From Actinomycetota bacterium (GTDB lineage Bacteria > Actinomycetota > Aquicultoria > Subteraquimicrobiales > Subteraquimicrobiaceae), in contig JASEGB010000002.1 of NCBI GenBank assembly GCA_030018275.1, forward strand, positions 59,638 through 123,637: 64,000 nt of DNA, read 5' to 3'. Under the pieces are notes generated by a model. The model searched no databases, was not told the DNA's origin, and saw only the letters and a list, made by a program, of their open reading frames with translations. Position 1 is the stretch's first letter, and each line of letters starts with the position of its first letter. Both the position numbers and the translations under genes were made by a program. Shown here piece by piece: positions 27,841 to 58,217 of the stretch.

Positions 27841-28281
27841 TCAAAGCTTCGCTGGATCGAGGCGCCTAACTTCCTTAATGAGATCGAAGTGTGCATCGGT
27901 ACTGATTATGCACTCGATACCATTGCTGAGCATCACAGCGGCGTGAATTAAATCCCGAGGAGCAATCCTAGCCTTCATATATTTTTCAACCAGCTCTATT
28001 AGCTTACTTACTTCAGAAAGACCTACTGGGAGAACTTCCAATCCGAGTGCATAAATATCTTTACACACTTGAAGGGCAGTGGTCCACTCGCCAACAAGAG
28101 CATAGCGGTATATTATCTCTTGAAAAACTTCACTATCAGTTACGGGAAGACCAAATTCTTTCTCAAAACTGCCATCCGCTATTTTCAGAATAAGTTTTGC
28201 ACAAGGCTCTTTATAAGGATGGTCTTTCCCCCGAGCATACATCACAATGTTGGTATCAATGAAGTAGGCTGTTTCTACCAT
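27841..28281 (-). CDS. vapC: PIN-domain toxin (VapC-like)
   Basis: The FIDTNIV N-terminus and conserved acidic residues are present. The likely start is 14 codons inside the listed ORF. Confidence 0.72.
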   Translation of the reverse strand: MVETAYFIDTNIVMYARGKDHPYKEPCAKLILKIADGSFEKEFGLPVTDSEVFQEIIYRYALVGEWTTALQVCKDIYALGLEVLPVGLSEVSKLIELVEKYMKARIAPRDLIHAAVMLSNGIECIISTDAHFDLIKEVRRLDPAKL

Positions 28282-28538
28282 CCTCCATGCCCTCGGGCTA
28301 TAAGCTCCTCGATCTCTTCCCAAGTGGGTAACTTTTCCTGAGCTGATATAATTCTCTGTGCCGCTTGCATCCGTACCTTCTTGGAAACCTCATCTTCCGC
28401 AAGAACTGTTTTCTCCACAGCCTCTCGTATCAAAGCAGCAACCGAGACCCCTCGGAGTTTTGCTTTCTCTTCTAGCTTCCGATATTGCTCCGGCTCAAAC
28501 AAGATCATCGCCTTTTTGGTTAATGACACCACTGTCAC
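28275..28538 (-). CDS. vapB: Ribbon-helix-helix antitoxin (VapB/CopG-like)
   Basis: 87 aa. It overlaps the PIN gene start. It has an RHH-like N-terminus and a charged C-terminus. Confidence 0.6.
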   Translation of the reverse strand: MTVVSLTKKAMILFEPEQYRKLEEKAKLRGVSVAALIREAVEKTVLAEDEVSKKVRMQAAQRIISAQEKLPTWEEIEELIARGHGGW

Positions 28539-28632
28539 CTCTTTTATATCAACATCAATATATATAACACTTGAGACTTTGTCAACACATTAGGCATCAG
28601 TCAACAGCCAGCTGAATTTGCCGGGAGCCTCG

Positions 28633-30018
28633 CTAAATTAAAGACTCGCCTTCTAAACCTTGTGCTTCCATAAATAAGCTAGTTTCGGGTCTTTGAATTT
28701 TCTCCAGAGAAATGCCTTTAACTCCGATTCCCGTATAAACGAAACCGAATTCCGTTAAAAGCTGAGAATCTAAACAATTTCTGGTATCGAATATAATTGG
28801 TTTCTTGAGCAACGATTTGATTCTTTCAAAATCAAGCCATCTGAATTCATCCCACTCGGTCAACAAAACGAGCATATCACTGTCCTTAGCTACCTCATAG
28901 GCATTAGTGGCGAACTCGACGCCCTTTAAAACCCGCCCGGCATTTTCCATAGCCGCAGGGTCGTAAGCTTTCACAAGGGCACATTCCGTTTGGAGATGAT
29001 TTATGATATCTATCGCCGGTGCGTCCCTAACATCATCGGTATTTGGTTTGAAGGATAAACCTAATATACCAATGCACTTATCTTTAAGATCACCTAAAAG
29101 TTGTCGGATCTTCACCACCACTAACCTCTTTTGATCTTCATTAACCTTTAAAACCTCCTTAAGCAGGTTGAATTCGTATCCACAATCTTCAGCAATTTTA
29201 ATGAACGTTTTACAGTCCTTGGGCAAACACGAACCTCCCCAGCCCGGTCCAGCCTTGAGGAATTCAAAACTGATCCTCTTATCATATCCCATCCCTGTAG
29301 CTACATCCTTTACATTTGCCCCCACAGTATCGCATAGATTCGCTATGAAGTTTATGAAAGAAACCTTGGTCGCCAAAAAGGCATTGCAAGCATACTTTAT
29401 TATCTCTGCACTGATCTGGTCGGTAATGAGAATGGGAGCTTTAAGGGGGCGATAAAGCTCGGTCATAATTTCGGCAGCTTTTTGACTATCCGTGCCTATG
29501 ATAATTCTGTCTGGATTGAGGAAATCTTTTACCGCCGAGCCTTCGCGCAAAAATTCAGGATTGGAAACCACATCAAACTTGTGAGGATAAACCATATTTT
29601 CAAGGATTATCCTTTTAACCAGCTCAGCTGAGCCCACAGGTACTGTGCTCTTATTGGCAATTATAGTATATTTATTAATCCCTTTAGCTATGCCCTTTGC
29701 GGCAGACTCAACATGGGATAAATCCACACTTTTTTCATTGAATGGAGTTCCAACCGCGATGAAAACAATATCGGATTCACTCACACCTTCTCCAACATCC
29801 ATTGAAAAACTCAATGTATTTCTCTTATAATTCTTTTCCACGATTTTGCTCAGCCCTGGCTCATGAACAGGAATTACACCATTGCACAAACTTATTATTT
29901 TGGAGCCATCGATATCCACACAAACAGCGTCGTGACCAATATCAGCCAAGCAAGCCCCCATAGTCAATCCAACATATCCGGTCCCTATAATACAAACTCT
30001 CAATGTTCTCCCCTCCAA
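28633..30018 (-). CDS. ugd: UDP-glucose 6-dehydrogenase / nucleotide-sugar dehydrogenase
   Basis: 461 aa. N-terminal NAD motif GTGYVGL and the catalytic Cys region GGSCLPKD. Confidence 0.9.
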   Translation of the reverse strand: MEGRTLRVCIIGTGYVGLTMGACLADIGHDAVCVDIDGSKIISLCNGVIPVHEPGLSKIVEKNYKRNTLSFSMDVGEGVSESDIVFIAVGTPFNEKSVDLSHVESAAKGIAKGINKYTIIANKSTVPVGSAELVKRIILENMVYPHKFDVVSNPEFLREGSAVKDFLNPDRIIIGTDSQKAAEIMTELYRPLKAPILITDQISAEIIKYACNAFLATKVSFINFIANLCDTVGANVKDVATGMGYDKRISFEFLKAGPGWGGSCLPKDCKTFIKIAEDCGYEFNLLKEVLKVNEDQKRLVVVKIRQLLGDLKDKCIGILGLSFKPNTDDVRDAPAIDIINHLQTECALVKAYDPAAMENAGRVLKGVEFATNAYEVAKDSDMLVLLTEWDEFRWLDFERIKSLLKKPIIFDTRNCLDSQLLTEFGFVYTGIGVKGISLEKIQRPETSLFMEAQGLEGESLI

Positions 30019-30068
30019 AAGCTGAAATTATAAAAGCTCCTCCAATGCATTCCATTGTTTTTTCTACA

Positions 30069-30719
30069 TTATTGGGGCGACTTCCTCTTTAAATCCCTTT
30101 CCCTCACAACAACCCACACCAAACATGCTAACACTATAAGACAAAGGAGAACATAAAAAAGAGAAAAGGGCTTATCCCTGAGTATCCTTCCCATTGCGGC
30201 ATTTACTAACTGTCCTAGATCCATATCGATGTAAGTTTGAAAAGCAAGATCTTTTCCGGAAAGAGCATCACCATTCAAGTAAGCTGCACCCTTGGGATAA
30301 GCATCTTTAGAGCTCAAAAAGATACCAACGGGATTTTTCAAGGTCGAGTTGGGTGATTCAAGCAAAAAGTAATATTCTTTATTTTTAGAATCTGGAATGG
30401 GCGCAAAAGTAAACGTATTAAAAACCTCATTCTGAATTTTAGAACCACCGATTCTGACCTCAGCTAAATTCCTATCGGCTGCCAAAGAATCTTTTAATTT
30501 GAATATAACTTCTGAAGGCTTTTTGGAATCTTTGATGGATAATTTAACATCGATACGATTTAGATTCCTCTCCTGGCAAATGAAGGATTGCCCAATAGTT
30601 TTTGAGCCATAAATGTGCTCGATGATATCGGAAGAAGTGCTCGGGCTCTCCAAGGGGACTTGAACGCATCCACCCAAGAGGAATGCTATAAAAAATAAGG
30701 CAAAAAATACCCTCTTCAA
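30069..30719 (-). CDS. Hypothetical lipoprotein with a C-terminal TM anchor
   Basis: 216 aa. Lipobox LLGGC after the signal peptide. Hydrophobic C-terminal helix. Confidence 0.5.
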   Translation of the reverse strand: MKRVFFALFFIAFLLGGCVQVPLESPSTSSDIIEHIYGSKTIGQSFICQERNLNRIDVKLSIKDSKKPSEVIFKLKDSLAADRNLAEVRIGGSKIQNEVFNTFTFAPIPDSKNKEYYFLLESPNSTLKNPVGIFLSSKDAYPKGAAYLNGDALSGKDLAFQTYIDMDLGQLVNAAMGRILRDKPFSLFYVLLCLIVLACLVWVVVRERDLKRKSPQ

Positions 30720-31715: not shown

Positions 31716-31788
31716 TTTCCTGCACCTTTGTAACTTCGCATTTTTAAACACCTCGTAGAAACAAACCTTCAGGCAGACACACTTTTGA

Positions 31789-31845
31789 TCTGTAGAAACA
31801 GATCTTCAGGTCTGTTATTAGTAACAGGTCTAAAGACCTGTTTTT
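31789..31845. repeat. Composite hairpin repeat holding both family cores
   Basis: gtagaaacagatcttcaggtctg is the reverse complement of the core at 53478-53500 with 1 mismatch. It also holds aacaggtctaaagacctgtt. Confidence 0.7.
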
Positions 31846-31976
31846 ACATGATTCTACACTCTACCGAAGTGCAACCTTTATAATAAATATACGAGATAAC
31901 CGACCGAATACCTTCTAGCTAAGCTGCTTCATCTCGCCCGTGTCTGCCGTATTCTGTAGCGCGGCCGTAGCCTTTA

Positions 31977-32012: not shown

Positions 32013-32014
32013 TT

Positions 32015-34023: not shown

Positions 34024-34210
34024 AGTCACTGCGAGCCCCTGTTTTGGGCGTTGCAGTCTCCTGATTGAGATCACCACGGCTGCGCCTCGCGACGACTTCG
34101 TCGGATTGCTTCGGGACTAAAGTCCCTCGCAATGACATCAGTGCAGTCATTGCGAGCGAAGCAATCTCGTGAGCAATTTAGATGCTTCTGAGCCGTCAGA
34201 AGTGCTAGCC
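34024..34210. repeat. Cluster of gtcattgcgag-family palindromic elements
   Basis: ctcgcaatgac-atcagtgca-gtcattgcgag is a perfect hairpin. gtcattgcgagcgaagcaatc. cgacgacttcgtcggattgcttcgg. Confidence 0.7.
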
Positions 34211-35688
34211 TAAAGGAGTCCAGGCTTTTTCAAAGTGATCTCAATGGAGCCGAGTACTATTTCTTCGCCCCTCCCTGTAAGACCTGGTGCATGAAGCACA
34301 AAATTCAATTTGTTATCTTTTGCCTCAATTTCAGTTAAATCTATAGTGACAGAGTTTGTTCGCCACACGCCCTTCCTTTTCGCAGGAATAGTGTAGTCCG
34401 CCACAATATAATCTATGTCGGTAAGTACAAGGTCCTTGGAATATGGCGCAGTTTTCACCGGAATTGGATCAAAAAGCGAATCTTTTGAAAAAGCAAAGTA
34501 GCCACCTTCTGAACTTAAAACAATATCACCCTTTTCAGTAACTATTTTATTTGTTTCCCTCCCAAGATTTACACTAAAGCTCTCATTTTCCTTATTAAGT
34601 ACTAACTTTCGATTATCATTTATGTGTAAAGTTTGTAGACCAGGCATATGCCACGACATAGCGCTTAGCTTTTTACCATTTGTGTAAAGGGTATTTTCCT
34701 TCGTTGGTCCTATCTTATATAAGTCATGGTCAGCAAGGAAAACCTTTTCCTCAAAGCAAAGATATTTTTGTTGAGACTCTAAGTCCTTAATCACAACATC
34801 AACTCCACATTCCAAAACAATCTTATATACACCCTCTTTTAAATCAGGAGCCATAACTTCAACCTTTTGAAGTTTTGAAGGTTTGCCGCTATTGGAAGCA
34901 TCTCCATCATCAGGAACAATTTGAGAATGTATCAATTTGCTTCCCGAGAAAATATTTATATTCAAAGGATCGGGTCCCTCATACCAATTGATATCTTGCT
35001 TGTTAAGAGCAAACTCAAGAGGCTGGTCCTTCACGTATATGTAGAAGGTATGAGGACCCCTTAATGAAGCATCGATCTCAGTACCTTCATTTACCTTACT
35101 AATCTCAACTCTTGGTCGCTGTACAAACTCATAGTGATAAGTAGCAATGCGAGCTTTTTCAGCTTTCTTACTCTTGGGAACAGGTGGATTAGCAATGAAA
35201 TCACCAACACTAGCAAATCTCTTCTTCCTCTGAAAGAGAGTCAGACCATTACTTTGAAGTCTATTCCAAGTCAAGGCATTAAGAGATTTATTATGCACGG
35301 GCTTGAAAATACATTGCCCAGTAGCAATATCCCGAACTCCTACCAAAAATTCCTCAGGGTCTCCTTGATATTTTATCTTGACCTCTGCCGTAGCAAACTT
35401 GGTATAAGGTACTTTAAGATCAAAAGTTACCTGGTCAGTTGTCATTTTTTGCTGAGGTATCTGGTAATACGCACCTTTCTTATCTCTGCTTAAGGCAGCA
35501 GAAGGAACAAGAGGGGTGGGTATAGCAATATTTTCAGAGCCTTCTGTTAAATCCATCTTATAAGTGACTGTAGCACCAAAAGGAGCAACATTCTTGTACA
35601 CTAAAAGACCAAAAAATATAATGGCAAGGAAAATGATTATTGCTCTTGCTCTCCGCCTAGCCAAAGATAGCCTTTCACCTTGCTGCAC
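34210..35688 (-). CDS. Hypothetical exported or membrane-anchored protein
   Basis: 492 aa. N-terminal signal-anchor, no recognisable catalytic motif. Confidence 0.5.
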   Translation of the reverse strand: MQQGERLSLARRRARAIIIFLAIIFFGLLVYKNVAPFGATVTYKMDLTEGSENIAIPTPLVPSAALSRDKKGAYYQIPQQKMTTDQVTFDLKVPYTKFATAEVKIKYQGDPEEFLVGVRDIATGQCIFKPVHNKSLNALTWNRLQSNGLTLFQRKKRFASVGDFIANPPVPKSKKAEKARIATYHYEFVQRPRVEISKVNEGTEIDASLRGPHTFYIYVKDQPLEFALNKQDINWYEGPDPLNINIFSGSKLIHSQIVPDDGDASNSGKPSKLQKVEVMAPDLKEGVYKIVLECGVDVVIKDLESQQKYLCFEEKVFLADHDLYKIGPTKENTLYTNGKKLSAMSWHMPGLQTLHINDNRKLVLNKENESFSVNLGRETNKIVTEKGDIVLSSEGGYFAFSKDSLFDPIPVKTAPYSKDLVLTDIDYIVADYTIPAKRKGVWRTNSVTIDLTEIEAKDNKLNFVLHAPGLTGRGEEIVLGSIEITLKKPGLL

Positions 35689-35889
35689 TTACCACCCCTC
35701 CCAGTTTACAAATAGAACCATTTTTACACTATCTGCCTATTTCTTTGAAGCCCTGAGCCCAGATATCTTGCGACCCCCAAACTATGCTAATGCAGCTCAT
35801 ACCTTATTTGATGAACTCGCTTATGTGTTTCAGAAAACGAGGAACATCTCTAACGGCTGCTTGGAGACCATCATAAACCTTCTTGGTAT

Positions 35890-36219
35890 CTATCTCATCA
35901 TATTCATGTACAAGCCTGTTTCGAAGACCAGCACAAGGAGAATCTCTCTTGCAAAATCTGGTGGAAGAACACCAACTTTTGCAAGATCCAAGAAGGATCT
36001 AAAGTAATCAGATGGAGGTGGATGCCCTTCCTCGGTAATTATGTGATAACTGATATCTATCATTCTGCCAATCATTCGTTCGAGATACCGCTCAGCCATC
36101 ACTTCATTCGCCGAATTTGCAGCATAATTTTCATAGCTTAAATTGGCTAAAGATCTTATAGCTTCGAAGTCTTCACTAATAAGGTTGATTTTCCGCATGA
36201 TCAGAGTTTTGTCAATCAT
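35890..36219 (-). CDS. HEPN-domain toxin (HepT/DUF86-like)
   Basis: 109 aa. R-x(6)-YH motif (GRMIDISYH). It overlaps the upstream MNT gene by 4 nt. Confidence 0.6.
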   Translation of the reverse strand: MIDKTLIMRKINLISEDFEAIRSLANLSYENYAANSANEVMAERYLERMIGRMIDISYHIITEEGHPPPSDYFRSFLDLAKVGVLPPDFAREILLVLVFETGLYMNMMR

Positions 36220-36692
36220 TCACCAGCTTCTCCCGCATAACGAGCAATAAATCGTCGGGCAAATTCCTCTTCCATTCTGAAATACTTTCTATGGTCAACA
36301 TATCGTTTAAAAGCATATATTTTAAGTCGAGCAAGGTCACTTTCTTTGCCATAAAGAATTTCATTTCTTTCCATAATCTTTTTGAGAAATAAGGGATCAG
36401 CTTGATTGATGACGGCAAGGTCAACTTCTCTTTCAGGAATAAGTTTCTGCAACTCAAAAAGAAGGTCTGAATACTTCTCCATAGAGAGATCAGGCTTTTT
36501 ACAAAGAACGGCGATATCAACGTCGCTTTGGGGGTGAACCCTGGTGGATACTGCCGAACCGAAAGCGAGGATCATACGAAGATTAAACCTCCTGGCGATC
36601 TTCTCAAAATCGTTCTCATTCGCATTATTTGAAAACTTAAATAATTCCATTTGACCTGCTTTCTCCTTCACGCATAAAATTCTACCCTTCAT
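36216..36692 (-). CDS. Minimal nucleotidyltransferase (MntA-like antitoxin)
   Basis: 158 aa. Pol-beta NTase motif GSAVSTRVHPQSDVDIAV. Confidence 0.75.
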   Translation of the reverse strand: MKGRILCVKEKAGQMELFKFSNNANENDFEKIARRFNLRMILAFGSAVSTRVHPQSDVDIAVLCKKPDLSMEKYSDLLFELQKLIPEREVDLAVINQADPLFLKKIMERNEILYGKESDLARLKIYAFKRYVDHRKYFRMEEEFARRFIARYAGEAGE

Positions 36693-36726: not shown

Positions 36727-36770
36727 TGATCGGTTTCTTCTACATTGGCTGCCCAATGCCTTTTCAAAAA
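36727..36770. promoter_or_regulatory. Shared roughly 35-bp motif upstream of a TA cassette, copy 1
   Basis: ggtttcttctacattggctgcccaatgcctttt matches 37940-37975 (agtttcttctacatcacctgcccaatacctttt). Confidence 0.5.
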
Positions 36771-36911
36771 CTTAAAATTTCCTACCTATTATAAAGCACT
36801 GCTCCACCAATGGATACACTGTTCGCAATAAAACGAAGCATCAAAGACTATGTGATGCATATTACACTCGGTTTATTTACCACAAAACAAGTCATTTTGA
36901 GCCCTTCCCTT

Positions 36912-37100
36912 GTTGTCATTGCTTCACTTCGTTCAGGACAAGTCTGAGCCCTTCGCTTAACCGTCATTCTGAAGGACCCTGAGTGAAACGAAGGGGACTG
37001 AAGAATCTCATATCCCTCTTTGTCATTGCGAGCTTCGATTTATCGAGGCGTGGCAATCCGACGAAGTCGTTGCGAGTCCGCCTGAGGCGGACGAACAATC
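36912..37100. repeat. Cluster of gtcattgcgag-family palindromic elements
   Basis: gtcattgcttcacttcg. cgtcattctgaagga...ctgaagaatc. gtcattgcgagcttcg. ccgacgaagtcgttgcgag. Confidence 0.7.
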
Positions 37101-37138
37101 TGTGTCTTCACAGCAAACAGCGTTTTGTGATCCCTGAA

Positions 37139-37543
37139 CTATTTGGAGAGTGTTTCTAAGAATGTTTTTGGAGATAGAATCTTAAGGCCGACTCCGTCCG
37201 CTTTTTGAAGGCGCACGTCACCAGTAACCAGCATTTCTGCTTTCCCTTCTCTTGCAGTCTCAATAATTGGATTGTCGGAAGCATCCTTAGCCCAACTCCC
37301 TTTAGAGTCAACGACGGGAATGAGTTCAGAAAAAGAAAGAATTTCCTCAATTAGATTGCCAACTAAATTAGACTCCAAATCAAACTTTCCTTCTGCCACC
37401 CTTCTAAACTCTTGAAGGATATAAAGGGAGGTTACAGAAGTAAATTTGCCTTTTCTCGCATGTTCCAAAATCTCCCCAGAGATACCACCAAAGAGAATTC
37501 CAGAAAGTAGAATATTGGTATCCAGAACAACTCTAACGGCCAT
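37139..37543 (-). CDS. PIN-domain protein (VapC-like toxin)
   Basis: 134 aa. VLDTNILL N-terminus and a conserved Asp near the C-terminus. Confidence 0.75.
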   Translation of the reverse strand: MAVRVVLDTNILLSGILFGGISGEILEHARKGKFTSVTSLYILQEFRRVAEGKFDLESNLVGNLIEEILSFSELIPVVDSKGSWAKDASDNPIIETAREGKAEMLVTGDVRLQKADGVGLKILSPKTFLETLSK

Positions 37544-37781
37544 AGCGGATTTCAGATAGGGCGCGGTTTATGTCTTCTTCTTTTAAACCCATCTCTTTTG
37601 CCTTTTGACGTGTTTTTTCCACCAGTTCATCCCATTGAGATTTGACTTTTGAAAGGACAATCCTATCGCCCTCAATTTCGACATCAACTTCACTTGCAGG
37701 TTTGATATTAAGACGCCCCGCAATGTCCTTTGGGATTGTCACTGTCAAGCTGTTTCCAACCCGTCTTATCTTGAGTTTCAT
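37533..37781 (-). CDS. AbrB/MazE/SpoVT-family antitoxin
   Basis: MKLKIRRVGNSLTVTIPKDIAG swapped-hairpin motif. The start is taken at the internal Met. Confidence 0.65.
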   Translation of the reverse strand: MKLKIRRVGNSLTVTIPKDIAGRLNIKPASEVDVEIEGDRIVLSKVKSQWDELVEKTRQKAKEMGLKEEDINRALSEIRYGR

Positions 37782-37939
37782 TTTGGCTTCCTCCTGAATT
37801 CTGGATATACCAAGTATATACAAAGAAAACTGCTGTGTCAAGCTAGGCACAAACTCCCCAAGGATTTCAACAAAATCAACAACGCCCCTGAATTATAACC
37901 TATCTGTTTTACGATGTCTGCAAAGCTCCGCAGACAATA

Positions 37940-37975
37940 AATCAGTTTCTTCTACATCACCTGCCCAATACCTTT
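37940..37975. promoter_or_regulatory. Shared roughly 35-bp motif upstream of a TA cassette, copy 2
   Basis: See 36727-36770. Confidence 0.5.
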
Positions 37976-39457
37976 TTAGGATTTCTCTATTAATCCCTTC
38001 AATATCAAAATATCCTCGCTTTTAATTTCCTTAAAAAGCACGAGTAAGCCCATGTACGCCAATGCAGCAACCACATAGAGGATAGTCAAATTCAAACCAG
38101 TGGCGGGAACCATAATAAAAATGAATGAAATCACCAGAGAAGAAATCAAAATCTTGAAAACTGACTGTGGAGAAACCAAAGTCGCAAAATTTTTCCAAAG
38201 CAAGCTTGCTCCCAAGATAACCCCAACCAAGCAAGTTAACGTAGTTGCCATGGCCGCTCCACTTAATCCGTAGTGAGAAATTAAACTCATGCATAATCCA
38301 GCATCTGCCAAGACCAAGAAAGAAGCTAAGATTATAACTTCTTTAAAATTATTGTTCGCCATTAAGATAGAGAGGATTGCCAGGAGAATAGAAATAAAGG
38401 CATAGCCGAAAGCCAAAATAGCAAGAGGAGAACCAGCAGCTAAATATCTTTGAGAGTACAGCAAGGAAACAAGATTCGTGGAAGTAACCGCCATAACAAA
38501 AGAAATTGGCACCAAAAACAGGAGCAAAAACCTCAAAGCTTGATTAATGTACCTTTTGGTCTGTTCGATCCTTCCTTCAGCGATAGAATTAGTGATAGCA
38601 GGAAAAAGAGCACTGGAAAGAGCACCAAAAAGAAAATAAAGAACTTTAGCTAGAGTGCTGGCGGCGACATAATAGCCAACCTTAGGTGCACTTAAAACGA
38701 TCTCCTTAACAAACCATAGATCAATGCTCATAAGCAAATTGAACAGAAGCCCAACGATCGCGAAAGGAACTGCCAGTTTTAAAAGCCCAAATGACTTTAC
38801 TGTCTTTACCGTATCATTTATGTCCACCTCTTCTGTGCCACCAATTAGCTCTCTAAAATAATAAAATCCTACCAGAAATCCAAAAACAGAGGCCATAATG
38901 TTTCCAATTAAGGCTCCTGCAACTGAAAGACCTAAAAGCACTAGCCCAACAACAAAGATAAGCTTTGAAAAAAAATATACAATTGAGGCAATTGCCTGCT
39001 GCTTGTAAAACCTCGAGCCGTTCAATAAGGCGATATAAATGTTATAAAAAGCCAATATGGGGATGTCTAAAATAGCGATCTTAAAATAAACATCTATTTT
39101 TGGATCATTAAAGATACGGGAAAGAAAGGGGGAAAATGAAAAGGCTAATACAAATAAAATAATTGCAACTAAAGACTGAAGATAAATAGCTTTTTTCTCA
39201 ATAACCTTTGTAAAAAAAGGAGATTCAGCTACCTTTTTGATGGCTGCACCTGAGACTCCGCCCAGAGTAATTTCCAGCCAGACAAGTAAAGAAATCACAA
39301 AACCAAAGAGTCCATAATGACTGGGACCGAGCACTCTACCCAAAGTGATATGTAAAGCATAGCCACATATCAGAGCAAAAGCCTGACTAATAGTTAAATA
39401 AAAGGTCCCTTGTGCTACTGTTTTTTTCATTAGCAACCTGTCACTCTCTAGAGTCAA
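37976..39457 (-). CDS. wzx: Polysaccharide biosynthesis protein / oligosaccharide flippase (Wzx, MOP superfamily)
   Basis: 493 aa, about 12 to 14 TM helices. The N-terminal region has the glycine-rich spacing typical of the Wzx family. Confidence 0.8.
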   Translation of the reverse strand: MTLESDRLLMKKTVAQGTFYLTISQAFALICGYALHITLGRVLGPSHYGLFGFVISLLVWLEITLGGVSGAAIKKVAESPFFTKVIEKKAIYLQSLVAIILFVLAFSFSPFLSRIFNDPKIDVYFKIAILDIPILAFYNIYIALLNGSRFYKQQAIASIVYFFSKLIFVVGLVLLGLSVAGALIGNIMASVFGFLVGFYYFRELIGGTEEVDINDTVKTVKSFGLLKLAVPFAIVGLLFNLLMSIDLWFVKEIVLSAPKVGYYVAASTLAKVLYFLFGALSSALFPAITNSIAEGRIEQTKRYINQALRFLLLFLVPISFVMAVTSTNLVSLLYSQRYLAAGSPLAILAFGYAFISILLAILSILMANNNFKEVIILASFLVLADAGLCMSLISHYGLSGAAMATTLTCLVGVILGASLLWKNFATLVSPQSVFKILISSLVISFIFIMVPATGLNLTILYVVAALAYMGLLVLFKEIKSEDILILKGLIEKS

Positions 39458-39809: not shown

Positions 39810-40337
39810 TCACATACTCCATATGAGGTGTTTTACCCTCATTGGTGAATAATCATTTATGATATTGAAATAGACTGCACATTGAAAAGTAAATATGCAA
39901 GTAAGTACCAGAGTCTTTACCCTGTCTAAATGCTTGACTGGTAGTTTGTCAGAAAGAGCAAATATTTCCTGAATCTGTCCAAAGAAAGGCTCAATGGTAA
40001 TTGATCTATTCTTGTAGATGGCTCTTCCCTCTTTGGAATTAAAGAACTCTGCTTCTTTTCTTCTCTCTTTCTTGGTATGCTTTTTGACTTCTACTGGGGT
40101 AATTAGCTTTTTTTCTCGCTTTTTCTCGTACTCTTTTAATTTGTTGTCATCATAGCCCGCATCGCCAGTAATAAATTTAGTCTCTTTAGGAAGAGAAGCT
40201 GTTAGTTTTGGATATAACTTATTATCTGGCACATTAGCACTTACCACATCAGCATTTAGAGTCAATATTTCCACAAGAGGGGACTTTCTGCTTTTTAATA
40301 TCATCTTTGTGCCAAATGTTGCCATTAGCCCAGGCAA
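39810..40337 (-). pseudogene. IS4/IS5-family DDE transposase, C-terminal fragment
   Basis: 175 aa. It has the DAGYD and IEPFFGQI motifs. The N-terminal half is absent or frameshifted. Confidence 0.7.
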
Positions 40338-40852: not shown

Positions 40853-41344
40853 ATGATTAAAACACCAGTAGAAGTATTTGGTGTATGCGCAGCTGCAGCA
40901 CTTTATAGAAGCAAGGCATTGAAAGAGGTTGGATTATTTGACAAGAGCTTCTTTACAATACTGGAAGATGTTGACTTGTCTTGGAGGATCAGATTATCAG
41001 GATATAAGGCTCTTCTTGTGCCTACAGCAAAGGTATTCCATAAGCGGGGAATCTCAGGGAGGAAACAGAACTCAAAAAGGTTGGCAATGCTCAAAACATA
41101 TTATGGAAGCAAAAATCGAGTTTGCCTTGTTCTCAAGTATTACCCTACTGGACTAATTCTTAAATTTTTTGCTCTTCTTTGTTGTAGGTTTTTCCGTGCA
41201 TCAACATGCAGTATGGGAATCAAAGATAATCTCATCACTGACGTCTTTAGATGTCTCAAACAGAGGAAAACCATACACCACAAGTACCCAAATATTAAGG
41301 AGATACAAGACAAATGGATTCGCCGTAGTCCAATAGGTATTTGA
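40853..41344 (+). pseudogene. GT2 glycosyltransferase C-terminal fragment. The N-terminal catalytic half is missing.
   Basis: 163 aa. FDKSFFTILEDVDLSWRIRLSGYKALLVPTAKVFH is the typical GT2 C-terminal region. There is no upstream DxD domain. Confidence 0.6.
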
Positions 41345-43712: not shown

Positions 43713-44096
43713 TTGGTGAGTCTAAGATTGAGAGCTAAAAGGAATTCCAGTAAATGCTTTGATGGTCCTGCGATTTTTGCTATCATGGAAGCTGCCTCCA
43801 GAAGGTGGATTGTTGGTTGCTATCTATATTCACTTTTCACTTTCTGGAGGTTTTCCACATCAGTGGTTTTGTTCCTTTTAGCTAATTTTTTGCCAAACTA
43901 CAGTGCTATAAATAAACAAATAATTTATACAAAAATTATGGTCTTGGCTTTGGTGATGAATATTATATTAAACCTTTTGCTTATTCCTAAATACTCCTAT
44001 ATTGGAGCAAGTGTAGCTGCAGTTATCCCTCAATTTTTACAATCCCTACTGTTATTTTTATTGGTAAAAAACTTTTATAAAAATGCAATTTATTAA
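43713..44096 (+). pseudogene. Wzx-type flippase C-terminal fragment
   Basis: 127 aa. Only the last 3 to 4 TM helices are present (GASVAAVIPQFLQSLLLF). No N-terminal part. Confidence 0.5.
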
Positions 44097-50869: not shown

Positions 50870-51010
50870 TTTCTCACGGAGAGAGTGAGATCCAGAAAGT
50901 ATCTTCCTCACAACGAAGTTATCGTCGGTGTGGCTCATTTTAAACTGAATCATCTCTCCTAATAATCCTAAAGTTGCAAATTGGACACCCATAAGCATTA
51001 GAAGAACACC
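50870..51010. repeat. Displaced copy of the 3' end of the GT2 gene at 52363-53328 (copy A)
   Basis: gtggctcattttaaactgaatcatctctcc...cccataagcattagaagaacaccgaaaag aligns to 52425-52515. Confidence 0.6.
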
Positions 51011-51059
51011 GAAAAGCAAAATATGGCGATAAAAACCACTTTATCTGCAGATGCATTTC

Positions 51060-51458
51060 CTAGGAGCTTTTCTTCTCAATCCATCTTTTAATAATGCGAT
51101 GAACATCTTCGGCTGCATTAAGTGCTTCTTTTGCATCTCCGAGAGAAGGCATGGAAACACTACTCGCTGGAACAGCGTCAGGATACCTAGTGGGGATATA
51201 GTACCCATCGATGACCTTGAATTCCTTCTCATATCCTAATAACTCCGTTTTGATTTCGTAACAAAGCGGCCAAAGTTCCACAAGCTTATGGGTCTTCGGA
51301 TAAAGCCTGCCATTAAAAAGTAAAAAAGCTTTTAAACTCTTCTCAACGGATTGCTGGGCTAAAAAGCAAACCTGAGCATAGAAAGCATTTTCCAACCCTA
51401 AACGAGCGAATTTTAAATCATCTTCAGCTCTAGATAACCATTTTTCATGCTGCTGCAT
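51060..51458 (-). CDS. HEPN-domain protein (toxin of a HEPN/MNT pair)
   Basis: 132 aa. It has a HEPN helix bundle. It overlaps the MNT gene by 14 nt. Confidence 0.75.
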   Translation of the reverse strand: MQQHEKWLSRAEDDLKFARLGLENAFYAQVCFLAQQSVEKSLKAFLLFNGRLYPKTHKLVELWPLCYEIKTELLGYEKEFKVIDGYYIPTRYPDAVPASSVSMPSLGDAKEALNAAEDVHRIIKRWIEKKSS

Positions 51459-51834
51459 CGTAAATCACTTTACCTTTTTCCAAAACCTCCTTCTGAAAAA
51501 ACAGATTGCTTTTTGCCTCCTCCTCAAATTCTTCCGGCGTATACACCAGAAAATCAATACCTACGTCATAGTCACATAAAGTGATTACCTCTTTTAATCT
51601 TTCATAAAAACCTGTATTTGTTTTTTTTATGATGAGCAAATCGATATCGCTTGTTAGTGAAATTTGTCCACTAACAATGGAACCGAACAGGATTATCTTC
51701 TCTGGCTTATATTTCTCTTTTAAAGTGCTAACGATAGATTCAATATTCCTTTCTAAAAGCTTTTTTCTGCTTTCACACAAATTCTTAGTCACTCTACCTC
51801 TCCTCTCCGTTTTGCTTTCAAGATACTGCTCCAA
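51445..51834 (-). CDS. Minimal nucleotidyltransferase (MNT antitoxin)
   Basis: 129 aa. Motif GSIVSGQISLTSDIDLLI. TTG start. Confidence 0.75.
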   Translation of the reverse strand: MEQYLESKTERRGRVTKNLCESRKKLLERNIESIVSTLKEKYKPEKIILFGSIVSGQISLTSDIDLLIIKKTNTGFYERLKEVITLCDYDVGIDFLVYTPEEFEEEAKSNLFFQKEVLEKGKVIYDAAA

Positions 51835-51949
51835 TTCGGCAATAAACTTCTCTGCGTCTCTAACAACTATCTCATCCGTGGTTCGTCAATTTTTATCTTG
51901 ATGCTATAGTCAGACTCCTCTCTTTCCTTGCGAATGTAATCATCTGTAC

Positions 51950-52200
51950 ACCTCTCACATCAACGATGTTAATACCCATTATAACTTCTCTTACTACCCC
52001 AATCTAACCTCGCATCTTTTATTTTTCGAAGTTGTAATCTTCGCCTGCTATAGCCTCTCGCTATACAAGAAATCTTATCCTCTTTGCTCACTATCCCAAT
52101 GCTGAGAGCCAATAATTCTTCTTATGGTAAAGTTATCATTAATGTGGCTCATTCCAGACTGAATCATCTCTCCTCCACTCGTCTCTAAATTCTTTGACAA
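51950..52200. repeat. Degenerate duplicate (copy B) of 52298-52500, the GT2 3' end plus about 80 bp of its downstream flank
   Basis: cacatcaacgatgttaatacccattataacttctcttactacc matches catctcaatagatgttaatacccattataactacttttactaacc. The GT2 tail homology follows it. Confidence 0.6.
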
Positions 52201-52362
52201 TATCTTCCCACTTCATAGTAATTGCCTCCTTCCCAATTCCATAAATCTATTCCGTCCCTTTCGATACTATTATAAAGAGGGTCGGCGACAGACACCTCTC
52301 ATCTCAATAGATGTTAATACCCATTATAACTACTTTTACTAACCCAGTCTAACCTGCATTTT

Positions 52363-53328
52363 TTATTTTCCGAAGTTTTGTGAGCGCTGAGAGCCAAGAA
52401 TCCTTCTTATTGTAAAGTTTTCGCTGGTGTCACTCATTTTAAATTGAATCATCTCCCCGAGTAATCCCAGAGAGATAAATTGGATTCCCATAAGCATTAA
52501 TAGAACACCGAAAAGTAGAAGAGGTCTGTGACCAATTCCTTGACCCATAAACCAAAGTACAGATAGATAGGCATTGATGATGAATCCCAAAATCAACATG
52601 ATCAGTCCCAGTAGTCCGAAAAGATGCAAAGGCTTTAAGCAGTAGTCGGTCAAAAACATGACAGTGAGTAGGTCGAGAAAGCCTCTGATGTAGCGTATCG
52701 CTCCGTACTTCGATTGCCCCGATTGCCTCGGTCTGTGGTTTATTTTGACTTCCCCAACCTTGAAGCCCTTCCCGTGAACAAGAACGGGAAGATACCTATG
52801 TAGCTCCCCGTAAAGCTTTATGCCCTTGGCTGTCTCTCGCCTATATACTTTGAATCCGCAGTTAAAGTCGTGGAGTTTTATTCCGCTTATTAAGGAGGTG
52901 ACCTGATTGAAAAGTTTTGAGGGAACCCTTTTTGAGAAGGAATCATGTCGAGGATATCTCCAGCCGGAGACGAGGTCGTATCCCTCCTCGATTTTTGAGA
53001 GGAATTTGGGAATCTCTGCTGGATCGTCTTGAAGATCGGCATCCATGGTGATAATTATTTTACCATCCGCATATTTGAATCCAGCAGAAAGGGCAGCAGC
53101 TTTTCCAAAATTACGCCGCAATTGAATGATCTTTACCGCTTTATCCTTGGCGTACAACTTCTCAAGGGAAGATATAGAACCATCTGAGCTTCCATCATCA
53201 ACGAAGACTATCTCGTAGCTCTTCCCGAGATTAGATAATGTGCTTGTGAGCTGTTTGTGGAGTTGTTCAAGACTCTGGCTCTCATTGTAAACTGGAATGA
53301 CTATGGAGATTTCATTCAAATTGATCAA
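52363..53328 (-). CDS. GT2 polyprenol-phosphate glycosyltransferase (ArnC/GtrB-like) with two C-terminal TM helices
   Basis: 321 aa. It carries IPVYNE, VFVDDGSSDGS and DADLQDDP, then a TM pair. Confidence 0.85.
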   Translation of the reverse strand: MINLNEISIVIPVYNESQSLEQLHKQLTSTLSNLGKSYEIVFVDDGSSDGSISSLEKLYAKDKAVKIIQLRRNFGKAAALSAGFKYADGKIIITMDADLQDDPAEIPKFLSKIEEGYDLVSGWRYPRHDSFSKRVPSKLFNQVTSLISGIKLHDFNCGFKVYRRETAKGIKLYGELHRYLPVLVHGKGFKVGEVKINHRPRQSGQSKYGAIRYIRGFLDLLTVMFLTDYCLKPLHLFGLLGLIMLILGFIINAYLSVLWFMGQGIGHRPLLLFGVLLMLMGIQFISLGLLGEMIQFKMSDTSENFTIRRILGSQRSQNFGK

Positions 53329-53368
53329 CCCCGATTAATATTCTGCACTTTTGGCAAAAATAACGGTA

Positions 53369-53526
53369 AAAACAGGTCTTTAGACCCGTGAGGCTATTGA
53401 CAGGCGAGAAATCTTGCTCCTCGCATGTATGAAAGCACTATAATTGTTAACAATCACCTGTTAATAATAACAGACCTGAAGGTCTGTTTCTACAGGTCTA
53501 AAGGTCGTGCCTGACCTGAAGGGTCA
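53369..53526. repeat. Repeat-rich intergenic block holding aacaggtct-family hairpins, a gcgag hairpin and a gtcattgcgag-family element (to 53590)
   Basis: aaaacaggtctttagacccgtg. gcgagaaatcttgctcctcgc. cagacctgaaggtctgtttctacaggtctaaaggtcgtgcctgacctgaagggtcat. ggattgcttcggctacgcctcgcaatgac. Confidence 0.65.
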
Positions 53527-55443: not shown

Positions 55444-55803
55444 TCATTTAATAAGTGGACGGATACGAATTTTACCTTCGCTTGCTACAATAAAATGGTC
55501 TAATATCTGAGTAGGCTTTTTGGAAAGGATTGTCTCTAAAGCAGCGATTTTAAGAGAGGGTGACTCTTGAACAAATCGAAATAAAATAATCCCTCGTACT
55601 GGTAATCTTTGGCGATAAATAAGAAATCCAAAATCTTTATCGTTCGTGATTATAACTCTATTCGTGCGAAACGCATAATCCAATAAAAAAGAATCTTCGC
55701 GACTAGCAAGTTCTTTCGTAGTCGCGACAATAATATTATGACCTTTTTCGGCAAGATAATGAACAACCGACTGACCTATATTTTCATCAATTAGAAATTT
55801 CAT
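55444..55803 (-). CDS. DUF5615 / PIN-like (Mut7-C-like) putative toxin
   Basis: 119 aa. The N-terminus FLIDENIG is typical of DUF5615 partners of DUF433. Confidence 0.55.
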   Translation of the reverse strand: MKFLIDENIGQSVVHYLAEKGHNIIVATTKELASREDSFLLDYAFRTNRVIITNDKDFGFLIYRQRLPVRGIILFRFVQESPSLKIAALETILSKKPTQILDHFIVASEGKIRIRPLIK

Positions 55804-55813
55804 TAGAGAAATA

Positions 55814-56068
55814 TTACGTCTTCAGGATGGGGTAAACCTCCTCTTCTTCTATAATTTTCTCGGCATAAAGAAGCGCAGCACGAATATCATCTTTTTTTAA
55901 AGAAGGGTATTCTCTAATAATATCTTCATCCCGCCAGCCCTGGGCAACCAATTTTATAACCAACTCCACCGGAATACGTGTCCCCAAAATGATTGGTTTG
56001 CCTAGCAAAATCTTTGGATTAATTTCTATACGTTTCATAAAATCTTTCATTCTTAATCTCATCTCCAT
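55814..56068 (-). CDS. DUF433-family putative antitoxin
   Basis: 84 aa. PIILGTRIPVELV matches the DUF433 core. Confidence 0.55.
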   Translation of the reverse strand: MEMRLRMKDFMKRIEINPKILLGKPIILGTRIPVELVIKLVAQGWRDEDIIREYPSLKKDDIRAALLYAEKIIEEEEVYPILKT

Positions 56069-56191: not shown

Positions 56192-56587
56192 CTATTCCTT
56201 CCAGTCTTTTGAAAGTCTCTTATCAAATGTGGCTGCTCTCTTGTACCCCCTTTTCTTCACCAGGCAACCATTATAGGCATTTATGAATTCCATATTATCA
56301 TCCTTGTATTTCTCTATAGCCTCTTCTATTAAGTTCGCATTCATAACTTTAAGGCCTTTTGTGTGAAGAAGACTTTTTATTACATCCTTTACCTCTTCCT
56401 TAAGAAAACCGTAGTAAGACTCTAAAACCCATATAATTTCCGCTATTACCATCTCAGAGGTAACCAGCTTTATTTCTCCCTTTTCAGCCTTTTCAAATAA
56501 ATCCTTTGCCTTCTCGTAGAGGTCTTCGACATCAGCTACAAAGAACCTTAAAAAGACATTGGTGTCTACAAAGATCGGCTCACTCAC
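56192..56587 (-). CDS. vapC: PIN-domain toxin VapC
   Basis: 131 aa. FVDTNVFL N-terminus. Confidence 0.8.
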   Translation of the reverse strand: MSEPIFVDTNVFLRFFVADVEDLYEKAKDLFEKAEKGEIKLVTSEMVIAEIIWVLESYYGFLKEEVKDVIKSLLHTKGLKVMNANLIEEAIEKYKDDNMEFINAYNGCLVKKRGYKRAATFDKRLSKDWKE

Positions 56588-56834
56588 CCTTTAATCCTTC
56601 CTCCGCTACCCTTTTGGAGACCACCTTTTTGGTATAATCTCTTTCATTTCCTGCACCTATAGCTCTGCCTCTGGCAATCCCACCTAAACTTAACAATGAT
56701 CTTCTTTCAACTTTCTTAATCTTCACCATATCTCCTTCTAATTCAAAAATAACCTCATCCCCTTCTTTAATCCCAAGTTTTTCCCTCAACGCTTTCGGCA
56801 CAGTTACCTGTCCCTTTTTGGTTAATACTGGCAT
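56580..56834 (-). CDS. vapB: AbrB/SpoVT-family antitoxin (VapB)
   Basis: MPVLTKKGQVTVPKALREKLGIKEGDEV. It overlaps the vapC start. Confidence 0.65.
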   Translation of the reverse strand: MPVLTKKGQVTVPKALREKLGIKEGDEVIFELEGDMVKIKKVERRSLLSLGGIARGRAIGAGNERDYTKKVVSKRVAEEGLKGE

Positions 56835-57063
56835 TTCTTCAAGCAAAAATATCGCATCTCTCTTAACTAATACGTCTTCTGTCAACTTTTTTCTTCATCA
56901 GTGTTATCAGCACTATCCGTGCTCTCAGCGTTTCGTTATCCATATTCTCAGCGGTTGCCAAAGCAAATAGCTGAGGCAACAAATCAGCGTTATTCTTCTT
57001 GTCTGAGAATTGCTCAGCTTAGCAAATAAGGCAATGATGGGAGATTTAGGGTCAAATTTGTGC

Positions 57064-57285
57064 TTAACCATGAAAGGCCACTGCGTATCCTTTTTTTGGA
57101 ATTTCTCCAGTATAAAACAGAGCGATGTCTCCTCTCACTTTACTTTGCTTTTCATAGATCTCATCCCTTGCCTTACTGTGAGCAATAACTTCGCCTTCTA
57201 TTGGATGACCCAAGTCATCCGTCTTCAAGACCCTTAGAAGAACCCACTCATCCCTGTATTTCTTTTTGATCTCATCCACTCTCAT
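57064..57285 (-). CDS. Hypothetical small protein
   Basis: About 73 aa from the internal Met (MRVDEIKKKYRDEWVLL...). No recognisable motif. Confidence 0.35.
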   Translation of the reverse strand: MRVDEIKKKYRDEWVLLRVLKTDDLGHPIEGEVIAHSKARDEIYEKQSKVRGDIALFYTGEIPKKGYAVAFHG

Positions 57286-57618
57286 TTGTAGACCTCCTCT
57301 CTCCTTTATCCTTTTTCTTCTCCAATCATAACTAAATATCCAAGACAACCAAGTAAGGTCAAGCCAGAAATTACCAGCCCAATATAGAATAAACTCTGAG
57401 GCCAGAAATATAGGGTAATTGTGAAATTCTTGGTTCCAACCTTCTTAGGATCTAAGTACCATATTTTGTAGGATTGATTTCTCTCAAAAGTCTATCTTTC
57501 AGCCTATGTTTTTTCCGATAATCCTCAGGAATAGCAAGTCGACTTCTGAGAATAAAGTAAAGATCGAAGAAATCTCTGGGCGCTTTTCGTCTGAAAAGAG
57601 CTTCAAATTTTTCAACCA

Positions 57619-57828
57619 CTAAAGAATCTTCAAATCTAAATCCTCAGAAAAACGCGGGCTCCCGTAGATGATCTTTAGAGCGGTTCCGTCCTTAAACAAT
57701 AGCCTTTCGGAACCTTTCTGCTGGTAAAAGTAAGACAAAAAGAGGTGCTGACAATATTCGCGGGCTACGTTGAGGTCGCTTGTTTGAGCTTTGGTGGCAA
57801 ATCTCTTTATCGCATCCTTGGTGATCAT
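57619..57828 (-). pseudogene. AbiEii/DUF1814-type nucleotidyltransferase toxin. Only the N-terminal 69 aa are present.
   Basis: LLFKDGTALKIIYGSPRFSEDLDL matches the AbiEii N-terminal motif. An early stop follows. Confidence 0.5.
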
Positions 57829-58217
57829 AAGACATCCATGGCCAATTTCATTAAGTTTTCCCTTTTAAAAACCTTGGTGTATTCGATTACTCTTTTTTTG
57901 CGAAGATTTTTCGCCTGCAGCCTCTCGTTCATGCTTCTTTTCTTAAGATCAACAAAGTAGAGATAATCAACAAGAGCCTTTTCCGGCTCCGCAATGAAAA
58001 CGGTCAAGTCATCGATCTTTCTCGGCTCATATCCTGTAAAGGCCTCTTTTCTAATTTTGTAATATCGGTAGATTTTATTTAACACTTCGAACTCCCTCGT
58101 TGGCTTGGTTGTCGCAGAAGTAATGGTGTAAACAGTTTCGGGGATAAGGTGGTAGTAAGACAAGGCATATTCGAAGGAAACATAGGAAGGCTGATAAAGT
58201 TTGTTCGCTTCACTCAC
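57825..58217 (-). CDS. AbiEi-like antitoxin C-terminal domain protein
   Basis: 130 aa. SFEYALSYYHLIPETVYTITSATTKPTREF resembles the AbiEi C-terminal region. Confidence 0.45.
   Translation of the reverse strand: MSEANKLYQPSYVSFEYALSYYHLIPETVYTITSATTKPTREFEVLNKIYRYYKIRKEAFTGYEPRKIDDLTVFIAEPEKALVDYLYFVDLKKRSMNERLQAKNLRKKRVIEYTKVFKRENLMKLAMDVL

Follow-up and report, generated by a model that had tools for sequence, protein, structure and literature searches.

A sequence shared by two toxin-antitoxin cassettes in an actinomycetotal glycan locus is most likely a duplicated piece of the spacer behind Wzx

A shared motif between two unrelated cassettes

We analyzed a stretch of 64,000 nt (in the following, the window) from contig JASEGB010000002.1 of an uncultured Actinomycetota bacterium, in which a cell-envelope glycan locus is interspersed with small toxin-antitoxin (TA) cassettes, most of them between positions 27841 and 58217. 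Two unrelated cassettes, a VapBC pair (AbrB-type antitoxin and PIN toxin) and a MntA/HepT pair (nucleotidyltransferase antitoxin and HEPN toxin), are each preceded by the same sequence of ~36 nt. This motif most likely represents the native spacer at the 3' end of the gene for the Wzx flippase, duplicated upon insertion of a ~1.2-kb segment carrying VapBC; we assign this reading a probability of roughly 0.65. The motif would then most likely be an insertion scar derived from the host spacer, belonging to the host and not to the cassettes. We favor this reading because copy 2 of the motif begins at the Wzx stop codon, because the motif opening follows Wzx in relatives free of cassettes, and because the motif is absent from homologous cassettes elsewhere. 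The junction is composed as follows:

37976-39430, minus strand: Wzx-type oligosaccharide flippase (Polysacc_synt), the upstream anchor gene
37941-37979, minus strand: motif copy 2, first ~36 nt of the post-Wzx spacer, beginning at the Wzx stop TAA (37976-37978)
37849-37910, minus strand: vapC-end-like remnant and 45-nt tail
37139-37854, minus strand: VapBC cassette proper, with promoter-like site (37841-37813), AbrB-type vapB (37533-37781) and PIN_3 vapC (37139-37543)
36771-37138, minus strand: non-coding filler between vapC and copy 1, putatively part of the inserted segment
36729-36767, minus strand: motif copy 1, left between the VapBC insert and mntA, putatively a second copy of the Wzx-3' spacer
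34210-35688, minus strand: 492-aa protein without family match, encoded directly downstream of Wzx in relatives

The original prediction of a shared sequence of ~35 bp proved correct, with coordinates accurate to within a few bases. The two copies (36729-36764 and 37941-37976) are identical at 31 of 36 positions, their local alignment scores 47 compared to a mean of 20 and a maximum of 28 after shuffling, and a self-BLAST of the whole window returns the match with an E value of 5.5e-4. Even with three mismatches allowed, the motif occurs only twice in the 64 kb with their eight TA loci, and no inverted copy is present in the window. A search for it elsewhere had been proposed: within the window it flanks these two cassettes, but no other. 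Both copies do precede cassettes on the minus strand, copy 2 ending 160 nt upstream of the vapB ATG and copy 1 ending 37 nt upstream of the annotated mntA ATG. Read along this strand, the order is Wzx, motif copy 2, a short hairpin, the vapC-end-like remnant with the 45-nt tail, the hexamers TTGACA-17-TATACT, vapB, vapC, ~370 nt of filler, motif copy 1, the hexamers TTGACG-17-TAGATT, mntA, a frameshifted hepT, ~115 nt and the gene for the 492-aa protein. The promoter scan thus places both promoter-like sites (37841-37813 and 36721-36693) outside the motif. The same two copies are found in three independent assemblies: the window, a contig of an NCBI metagenome-assembled genome (MAG) that is 98.96% identical to it (L001, GCA_030019535.1) and a Logan contig that is 99.87% identical (L002).

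Comparison with cassette-free relatives

Wzx homologues with 74% (P0002) and 73% (P0003) identity are encoded on the contigs L013 and L014/L015. On these contigs, a homologue of the 492-aa gene comes immediately after Wzx, and the spacers of 178 and 61 bp contain zero TA genes. The comparison of cassette presence and absence thus finds the cassettes missing from the same Wzx spacer in two relatives. Aligned codon for codon, the post-stop bases read AAAGGTATTAGG in L013, AAAGGTATTGGG in window copy 2 and TGA-AAAGGCATTGGG in copy 1; the part preserved in copy 1 is TTGAAAAGG, with a TGA that matches the Wzx stop codon in the relatives. Each window copy is identical to L013 at 13 of 15 positions in fixed register; L014 differs from L013 in these opening bases in that the second T of the ATT is replaced by C. 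The window copies and the relatives further have a GTAGAA box in common, at similar distance. A hidden Markov model (HMM) built from the two relatives alone ranks the window copies first and second among all its matches in the window. Distant relatives, with 50-57% identity in Wzx, carry no such sequence behind Wzx. Host sequence duplicated by an insertion should be single where the insert is lacking, and this is what we found, in a comparison between species in which the strong match covers only ~15 nt. By these alignments, the assignment of the motif to the native Wzx-3' spacer appears well supported for its 5' half and likely for the rest. L013 carries ~117 nt of extra DNA (11483-11600) that are absent from L014, and they lie exactly where the cassettes of the window interrupt the Wzx spacer; this point may be an insertion hot spot.

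The VapBC cassette itself occurs elsewhere. VapC homologues with 90-91% identity are present in other Actinomycetota MAGs (L027-L031), and DNA identity of 88-90% to the window extends from 37854 to 37137 and no further, a segment comprising promoter, vapB and vapC. The surroundings of these cassettes are wholly different (Phd/PIN, HicAB, a Big_13 gene), and the motif is absent beside them. The 45-nt tail lies downstream of vapC in L029 and upstream of the cassette in the window, where it is preceded by CAGATAG, resembling the last vapC codons. Therefore, the inserted segment appears to carry the relic of a second vapC end. The filler on the other side of the cassette holds several units ending in AATGAC (GTCATTGCGAG-type on the plus strand) and has a partial inverted match to 34086-34109. 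No terminal inverted repeats are visible by eye at the ends of the insert.

Outside this species, the motif was not found in genome, metagenome or viral collections, leaving aside matches to its core that we judge to be chance. A metagenome scan with 24 specified bases and a scan of viral contigs returned no match, and a scan of genome contigs with a 19-base core gave ten single matches in unrelated taxa that do not have the flanks of the motif in common. A second metagenome scan with a Wzx alignment yielded three loci only, none of them informative, and exact-protein look-ups for a 493-aa form of Wzx and for MntA gave no match.

Other identities of the motif were considered and rejected. A reading frame KR(H/Y)WA(A/G)(N/D)VEETD runs through both copies, but only one of the five differences is synonymous, no open reading frame (ORF) is supported, and no gene is called there in L001 or L002. 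The HMM of the two copies hits the ends of PMT_2 genes in L013 and L014 (AAAAGGCATGGGCAGGCAAT) with E ~1; the reverse model misses the motif, and we treat this similarity as chance. Upstream of copy 1, ATAGGTAGGAAAT resembles the last Wzx codons of L013 only with a 9-nt gap, in an alignment that is not significant. Finally, a third copy upstream of the 492-aa gene (35718-35746) would be in the right position and has GGCAG...GTGTAAAA in common with the motif, but is not claimed here.

Gene-end duplications at other cassettes

Duplicated gene ends also flank other TA cassettes. The last ~125 nt of a GT2 glycosyltransferase gene (52363-53328) are present three times in the window, and an MNT/HEPN pair lies between the second and third copies:

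52386-52520, minus strand: 3' end of the GT2 gene, reference copy
52101-52173, minus strand: second, partial copy of the GT2 3' end, 73 nt, 79% identical (E 2e-10), fused to a truncated ORF (52175-52216)
51948-52033, minus strand: 86-nt unit preceding MNT/HEPN, second of two copies; 87% identity with 52292-52377 (E 2e-21)
50897-51021, minus strand: third copy of the GT2 3' end, 125 nt with its own stop, 81% identical over 101 nt (E 3e-20)

The 86-nt unit follows each of the first two gene-end copies; the promoter scan finds a site only in its copy at 52292-52377 (TAGACT-17-TATAAT, 52351-52323). The third gene-end copy is located downstream of MNT/HEPN and just upstream of a GT4 gene. The truncated ORF fused to the second copy (MKWEDIVKEFRDEW, minus strand) is related to a 94-aa ORF at 57064-57348 (minus strand; core MRVDEIKKKYRDEWVLL..., weak DUF5678 match with E 0.006), and ORFs of this type may represent another small cassette type in the same hot spots.

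Similar arrangements are present in the other MAGs. On L029, hicAB is flanked by a perfect 57-bp direct repeat (843-899 and 1739-1795) that corresponds to the last 57 nt of the upstream gene, stop codon included. L027 lacks hicAB and has the 57-nt sequence once, and serves as empty-site comparator. The L029 repeat is present in both NCBI and JGI assemblies, and its cassette also in a Logan contig. On L027, Phd/PIN is flanked by a 63-nt repeat (86% identical; 1396-1457 and 2323-2384) that starts just after the stop of the upstream gene. On L013, the 3' end of PMT_2 is duplicated. On L025, ~60 nt of the Wzx 3' end and the spacer remain before the homologue of the 492-aa gene, while the neighbors have been replaced by a divergent cluster.

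We propose that a strain-variable glycan locus gained small, self-contained TA cassettes in its intergenic spacers, co-oriented with the operon genes. At Wzx, the inserted segment of ~1.2 kb would comprise the vapC-end remnant, tail, promoter, vapB, vapC and filler. Its insertion would have left a piece of spacer on both flanks, one copy staying beside Wzx and the other now lying before MntA/HepT, which would represent a separate insertion into the same spacer. The likeliest route would be recombination by the host, with the 3' end of the upstream gene serving as anchor, either by single-crossover (Campbell-type) integration of a circularized fragment carrying the gene end and the cassette or, as an alternative option, by one-sided homology-facilitated illegitimate recombination. 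By both routes, the upstream gene would remain intact and an incomplete duplicate of its end would be left on the far side of the insert. On this model, the 14-21% divergence between repeat copies in the window would point to a donor allele that had diverged or to the age of the event, and the identity of the L029 copies to a recent insertion. Afterwards, the cassettes would decay in place, as exemplified by HepT with its frameshift, by the AbiE remnant and by what is left of MNT/HEPN near secA (see below).

Several points weigh against this reading. The homology between motif and spacer is solid for the first ~15 nt only, with shuffle p values of ~0.01-0.05 over the full length, and an HMM from the two window copies alone misses the spacer of the relatives. 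We found no empty or single-cassette strain of the species, L001 and L002 both carrying the two copies. These copies differ at 5 of 36 positions, which fits an old event and a diverged donor allele equally well. The candidate third copy downstream of MntA/HepT lacks support (nhmmer E 40 in the window, shuffle p 0.06-0.36, no local-alignment signal), and flanking repeats were not found around five of the seven cassettes in 27841-58217. The mechanism of integration, moreover, is one that we infer from sequence.

More generally, TA cassettes of this lineage (VapBC, MNT/HEPN, HicAB, Phd/PIN) might spread as minimal units without recombinase and, in doing so, regularly duplicate 36-125 nt of the 3' end of the upstream gene. 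We put this forward tentatively and consider it rather unlikely. One way would be RecA-mediated excision between the repeats, after which the ~1-kb circle could reintegrate into related genomes in the Campbell manner; alternatively, insertion of the type known from non-homologous end joining could take place at widely staggered breaks. If true, the repeats would be both product and vehicle of TA mobility. Cassettes of ~1 kb flanked by long gene-end duplications were encountered five times in four assemblies, with a recombinase gene never in sight, which bears on how chromosomal TA pairs move when they are not part of recognizable mobile elements. Should a genome-wide count confirm the pattern, it would provide a sequence signature for dating and tracing TA gain. 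In our view, this recurrent gene-end duplication around recombinase-less TA cassettes is the sole feature that merits systematic follow-up.

Alternative explanations

We weighed the alternatives in the order of falling likelihood: an integrase acting in trans, a functional host element in two copies, and an operator. Duplication of a target gene's 3' end is the classic signature of integrase-mediated insertion. The duplicated gene ends could accordingly be attachment (att) sites of a site-specific (tyrosine or serine) recombinase encoded elsewhere, and the cassettes integrase-less, cis-mobilizable remnants, a TA pair being perhaps the last surviving piece of a larger element that duplicated the 3' end of its target gene. 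The direct repeats indeed correspond to the 3' end or flank of the upstream gene and restore that gene, the GT2 site shows tandem arrays with a repeat between successive inserts, and the filler and the vapC-end remnant beside VapBC look like decayed cargo. We nevertheless regard this explanation as unlikely. A site-specific integrative element should come with a cognate integrase, but a Pfam scan of the larger ORFs of the window detected no recombinase domain apart from two transposase fragments, and no integrase gene is present in the flanks of the L027-L031 cassettes. The flanking repeats are wholly different from site to site, so a single recombinase with one att specificity fails to account for them. 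The 57-bp repeat of L029 encloses 839 bp with hicAB only, which leaves no room for a recently decayed element, and the viral contigs lack the motif.

Integrative elements duplicate their att sites, and cis-mobilizable elements (CIMEs) lack an integrase of their own. As in these systems, direct repeats of the target 3' end flank the insert, the target stays intact, and inserts accrete in tandem at one site. Unlike in these systems, a recombinase gene is missing here, the repeats are unrelated between sites, the inserts measure only 0.8-1.2 kb, and one of them, with its perfect 57-bp repeat, holds hicAB only.

Integrons and pdif modules offer further comparisons. Sedentary chromosomal integrons such as the Vibrio superintegron, whose cassette reservoir is the subject of PMC11023631, resemble the window in its co-oriented small cassettes, many of them TA with promoters of their own, and in recurring short separators. 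The window differs in that IntI and attC-like imperfect palindromes with R''/R' cores are missing and the repeat is specific to one junction with two copies only; the scan of the larger ORFs of the window revealed no recombinase domain. An integron-like array had also been considered for the 45-nt VapBC tail, which was not found beside any other cassette. On Acinetobacter plasmids, TA genes are carried by pdif (XerC/D) modules (10.1101/2022.01.12.475240), which are likewise discrete and bounded by short conserved sequences. The flanks in the window are direct duplications of whatever host sequence was hit. The sites of pdif modules, in contrast, form one conserved 28-bp family in inverted orientation.

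According to the second alternative, which strikes us as quite unlikely, the motif is a functional host element of the spacer between Wzx and the 492-aa gene, such as a -10 region, a leader or a processing hairpin, and both copies are under selection, since each inserted cassette would otherwise sever the downstream genes from it. The opening bases and a TAGAAT/GTAGAA box are conserved behind Wzx in L013 and L014, and L025 retains the spacer with a GTAAAA variant of the box despite its replaced upstream genes. By eye, copy 1 can form a 6-bp hairpin (CATTGG-GCAG-CCAATG), and the other versions can form weaker ones containing G-U pairs. However, RNAalifold predicts no consensus structure from five sequences and Rfam returns no match, and the RNA hairpin was rejected as a candidate. 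Both window copies read TAGAAG, having lost the final T of a TAnnnT -10 element, and the promoter scan places no site in the motif. Such a function could explain conservation but not duplication.

Very improbable in the light of these results is the idea that the regulation of the MNT/HEPN-type and AbrB/PIN cassettes is coupled by the motif, acting as their common promoter or operator or as a boundary sequence borne by the cassettes. Each copy does precede an antitoxin gene, in the same orientation, but the two antitoxins are unrelated, one being an AbrB-fold DNA binder and the other a nucleotidyltransferase, and the promoter-like hexamers fall outside the motif. In other MAGs, VapBC genes and promoter with ~90% identity are found without the motif, cassette-free relatives carry its opening behind Wzx, and the 64 kb with their eight TA loci contain only two copies. 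A common promoter or operator was therefore not borne out. The alternative wording of the original prediction, an insertion-boundary sequence, came close to the mark, except that the sequence most likely belongs to the host spacer and not to the cassettes. Reading the motif as a duplicated Wzx spacer removes the wrong lead of an operator that cross-regulates two unrelated TA systems; the motif would instead mark a place of insertion.

Least probable of all is a chance similarity or an artefact of mixed-strain metagenome assembly: the source is a MAG-type assembly and hyper-divergent patches relative to L001 (see below) could reflect strain mixing, but the self-BLAST E value of 5.5e-4, a shuffle maximum far below the observed score, the recurrence of both copies in three independent assemblies, the L029 repeat in NCBI and JGI assemblies alike and the Logan contig with the L029 cassette speak against it.

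Toxin-antitoxin families of the window

The TA families were assigned by profile searches against Pfam, NCBIfam and PADLOC, the HMM annotation that had been proposed for the small ORF pairs. It supports every TA pair or remnant listed at the outset, including the two decayed loci, of which the one adjoining secA required a stitched translation:

~9150-9700, minus strand: decayed MNT/HEPN adjoining secA, with multiple frameshifts and an internal HEPN deletion
27841-28538, minus strand: RHH antitoxin and PIN toxin (PIN E 1e-11, RHH E 2e-6)
35890-36692, minus strand: MntA (36216-36692) and HepT, type VII TA (NCBIfam/Pfam)
36216-36692, minus strand: MntA nucleotidyltransferase antitoxin, apparently intact (NF047752, 75.5 bits, equivalog cut-off 60)
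35804-36219, minus strand: HepT toxin, frameshifted; the ORF 35890-36219 ends early and Rx4HxY (35900-35923) lies in another frame
37139-37781, minus strand: AbrB/MazE-type antitoxin and PIN_3 (PIN_3 E 8e-17, antitoxin E 7e-14; TIGR00305 matched by 37139-37543)
51060-51834, minus strand: MNT (51445-51834) and HEPN (51060-51458) (HEPN E 1e-30, MNT E 5e-12)
55444-56068, minus strand: DUF433 (55814-56068) and PIN-like DUF5615 (55444-55803) (DUF5615 E 2.5e-19, DUF433 E 1e-22)
56192-56885, minus strand: AbrB/MazE-type antitoxin (56580-56885) and PIN toxin (56192-56587) (PIN E 1e-11, AbrB/MazE E 2e-13)
57452-58217, minus strand: AbiE (type IV TA, abortive infection) remnant, with AbiEi (57825-58217) and AbiEii fragments (57619-57828 and 57452-57619)

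The PIN toxins of the three VapBC-type pairs score 45.7, 62.6 (PIN_3) and 45.8 bits, all above the Pfam gathering cut-offs, and their antitoxins 27.9 (RHH_1), 51.9 and 50.8 bits (both MazE_antitoxin). In all three pairs, the antitoxin is encoded immediately upstream of the toxin in the same orientation, with ORF overlaps of 8-49 nt. By domains and gene order, these pairs are predicted to be type II TA systems of the VapBC type. Relatives also have RHH/PIN pairs; with 25-26% identity, these are not orthologues of the pair at 27841-28538. In the pair at 51060-51834, whose ORFs overlap by 14 nt, HEPN scores 106.3 bits and the antitoxin 43.3 (NTP_transf_2) and 46.2 bits (Polbeta). DUF433 and DUF5615 (79.9 and 69.6 bits) are encoded by adjacent, co-oriented small genes; in the literature, this pair is predicted to act as a TA system. 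Domain pairs, sizes and the antitoxin-first order with overlapping or abutting genes match the known VapBC, MntA/HepT, HEPN/MNT, DUF433/DUF5615 and AbiE families. Compared to intact MntA/HepT and AbiE modules, however, HepT is frameshifted and AbiE fragmentary in the window, and all of its systems are known from their sequence.

Decay of individual cassettes

The HEPN/MNT pair predicted at 35890-36692 was assigned to the right family, MntA/HepT, but its toxin gene has to be corrected to a frameshifted one. The HepT motif RNRLVHEY (Rx4HxY) is out of frame, and its own frame runs on to a stop at 35804-35806. The shift lies near the codons for ...DFARE (35890-35965, minus strand), ahead of the active-site motif. 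HepT matches its Pfam family with E 1e-8; because of the frameshift, it covers only profile positions 1-84 of 120 in NCBIfam and scores 51.8 bits, below the cut-off of 60. L001 and L002 have exactly the same 61 nt surrounding the shift, so that the frameshift is probably a real mutation that would inactivate the toxin.

AbiEi matches its PADLOC profile (E 1.5e-34) at positions 66-191 of 200; since the match begins at position 66, ~65 N-terminal residues are missing. What remains aligns, at 76% identity, with the last two thirds of a complete AbiEi of 194 aa in L016. AbiEii is left as two fragments covering profile positions 1-67 and 165-203 of 260. Thus, neither a full-length AbiEi with its N-terminal winged helix nor a full-length AbiEii is present. 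Near secA, single ORFs at ~9150-9700 gave no HMM match. Stitched across three frames, the MNT of this locus is 45% identical to the MNT at 51445-51834 (E 2e-24), the match at the DNA level is 73% over 92 nt (E 4e-6), and N- and C-terminal pieces of HEPN are recognized with E values of 0.003 and 0.006.

Locus context and strain variation

The first ~18 kb of the window are occupied by housekeeping genes (ftsEX, transketolase, RF2, secA, HD-domain proteins and methionine-salvage genes). From there to the end of the window extends the glycan locus, nearly all of it on the minus strand, with genes for PGI, PGM, sugar-nucleotide enzymes, several GT2/GT4 transferases, methyltransferases, the Wzx flippase, a LytR_C protein, UDP-GlcNAc 2-epimerase and a CWB2 wall-binding protein. 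All TA cassettes are on the minus strand, in the orientation of their neighbor genes, and TA DNA makes up 5.1 of the 30.4 kb between 27841 and 58217. The GC content drops from 45.4% in the first 27.8 kb, the housekeeping part, to 38.9% in this stretch. Insertion sequence (IS) debris consists of a DDE_Tnp_1 fragment (39810-40337) and a Transposase_mut C-terminus (42731-42970). No tRNA genes and no matches to Rfam families were found in the window. NCBI labels identical proteins 'MAG: Actinomycetota bacterium'.

Compared to L001, the region 38026-35689, which includes both cassettes and both motif copies, shows a single difference. Just outside this TA block, patches diverge by 19-30%, against 0.2-0.6% elsewhere. 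They are located in Wzx (38027-38191, 32 differences) and in the 492-aa gene (35546-35645 and 35095-35265), and comprise synonymous and non-synonymous changes as well as a 6-nt indel. These patches look like short recombination tracts adjoining the cassettes, with strain mixing in the assembly as the alternative. The drop in GC content, the absence of the cassettes from relatives and the hyper-divergent patches beside them agree with the earlier view of a recombination-active accessory region with IS debris.

In Alteromonas, flexible genomic islands are of two kinds, additive islands at integration hot spots and replacement 'glycotype' islands (PMC4898812). The window shares with them a polysaccharide cluster that varies between relatives, small cassettes at fixed junctions, near-identical cassettes in different backgrounds (VapBC, ~90%) and partial target copies between inserts. 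Unlike in Alteromonas, the additive cassettes are located inside a replacement-type glycan island and not at tRNA genes, their targets are 3' ends or flanks of protein genes, the cargo is nearly only TA, and an integrase is not nearby. We conclude that the locus is a flexible surface-glycan island that collects and erodes TA cassettes, as in the known additive and replacement islands (PMC4898812). Accumulation and decay of TA genes in such a low-GC, strain-variable island is what is expected of flexible genome regions.

Some further observations concern the glycan locus itself. A 657-aa dehydratase/epimerase of the GDP_Man_Dehyd/Epimerase type (21431-23404, minus strand) has its family match split in two, with LAGLIDADG_3 at residues 307-356, and this domain probably marks an intein in a glycan-pathway enzyme. 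A GC-rich element of 42 nt occurs twice (19627-19668 and 19966-20007; 98% identical, E 1e-12), once in the spacer between PGI and PGM and once in frame within phosphoglucomutase, between domains III and IV, where it encodes ...ARPVTKGGFAPGGPV...; it is reminiscent of palindromic elements known to integrate within coding sequence. Between glycan genes, at 23467-23492, 31782-31847, 53366-53389 and 53456-53503, lie stem-loop repeats (AACAGGTCTAAAGACCTGTT with variants, partly in tandem) that can be regarded as terminator-like or as repetitive extragenic palindromic (REP)-like elements. Between the IS remnants, we found gene fragments at 43713-44096 (plus strand), 40853-41344 (plus strand) and 41577-42431 (minus strand). 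One is a 163-aa piece of a GT2 transferase with a Pfam match below threshold; the other two have no Pfam match and resemble, by eye only, a C-terminal piece of Wzx and the C-terminal part of a membrane protein. These fragments suggest an older, partly erased version of the glycan cluster.

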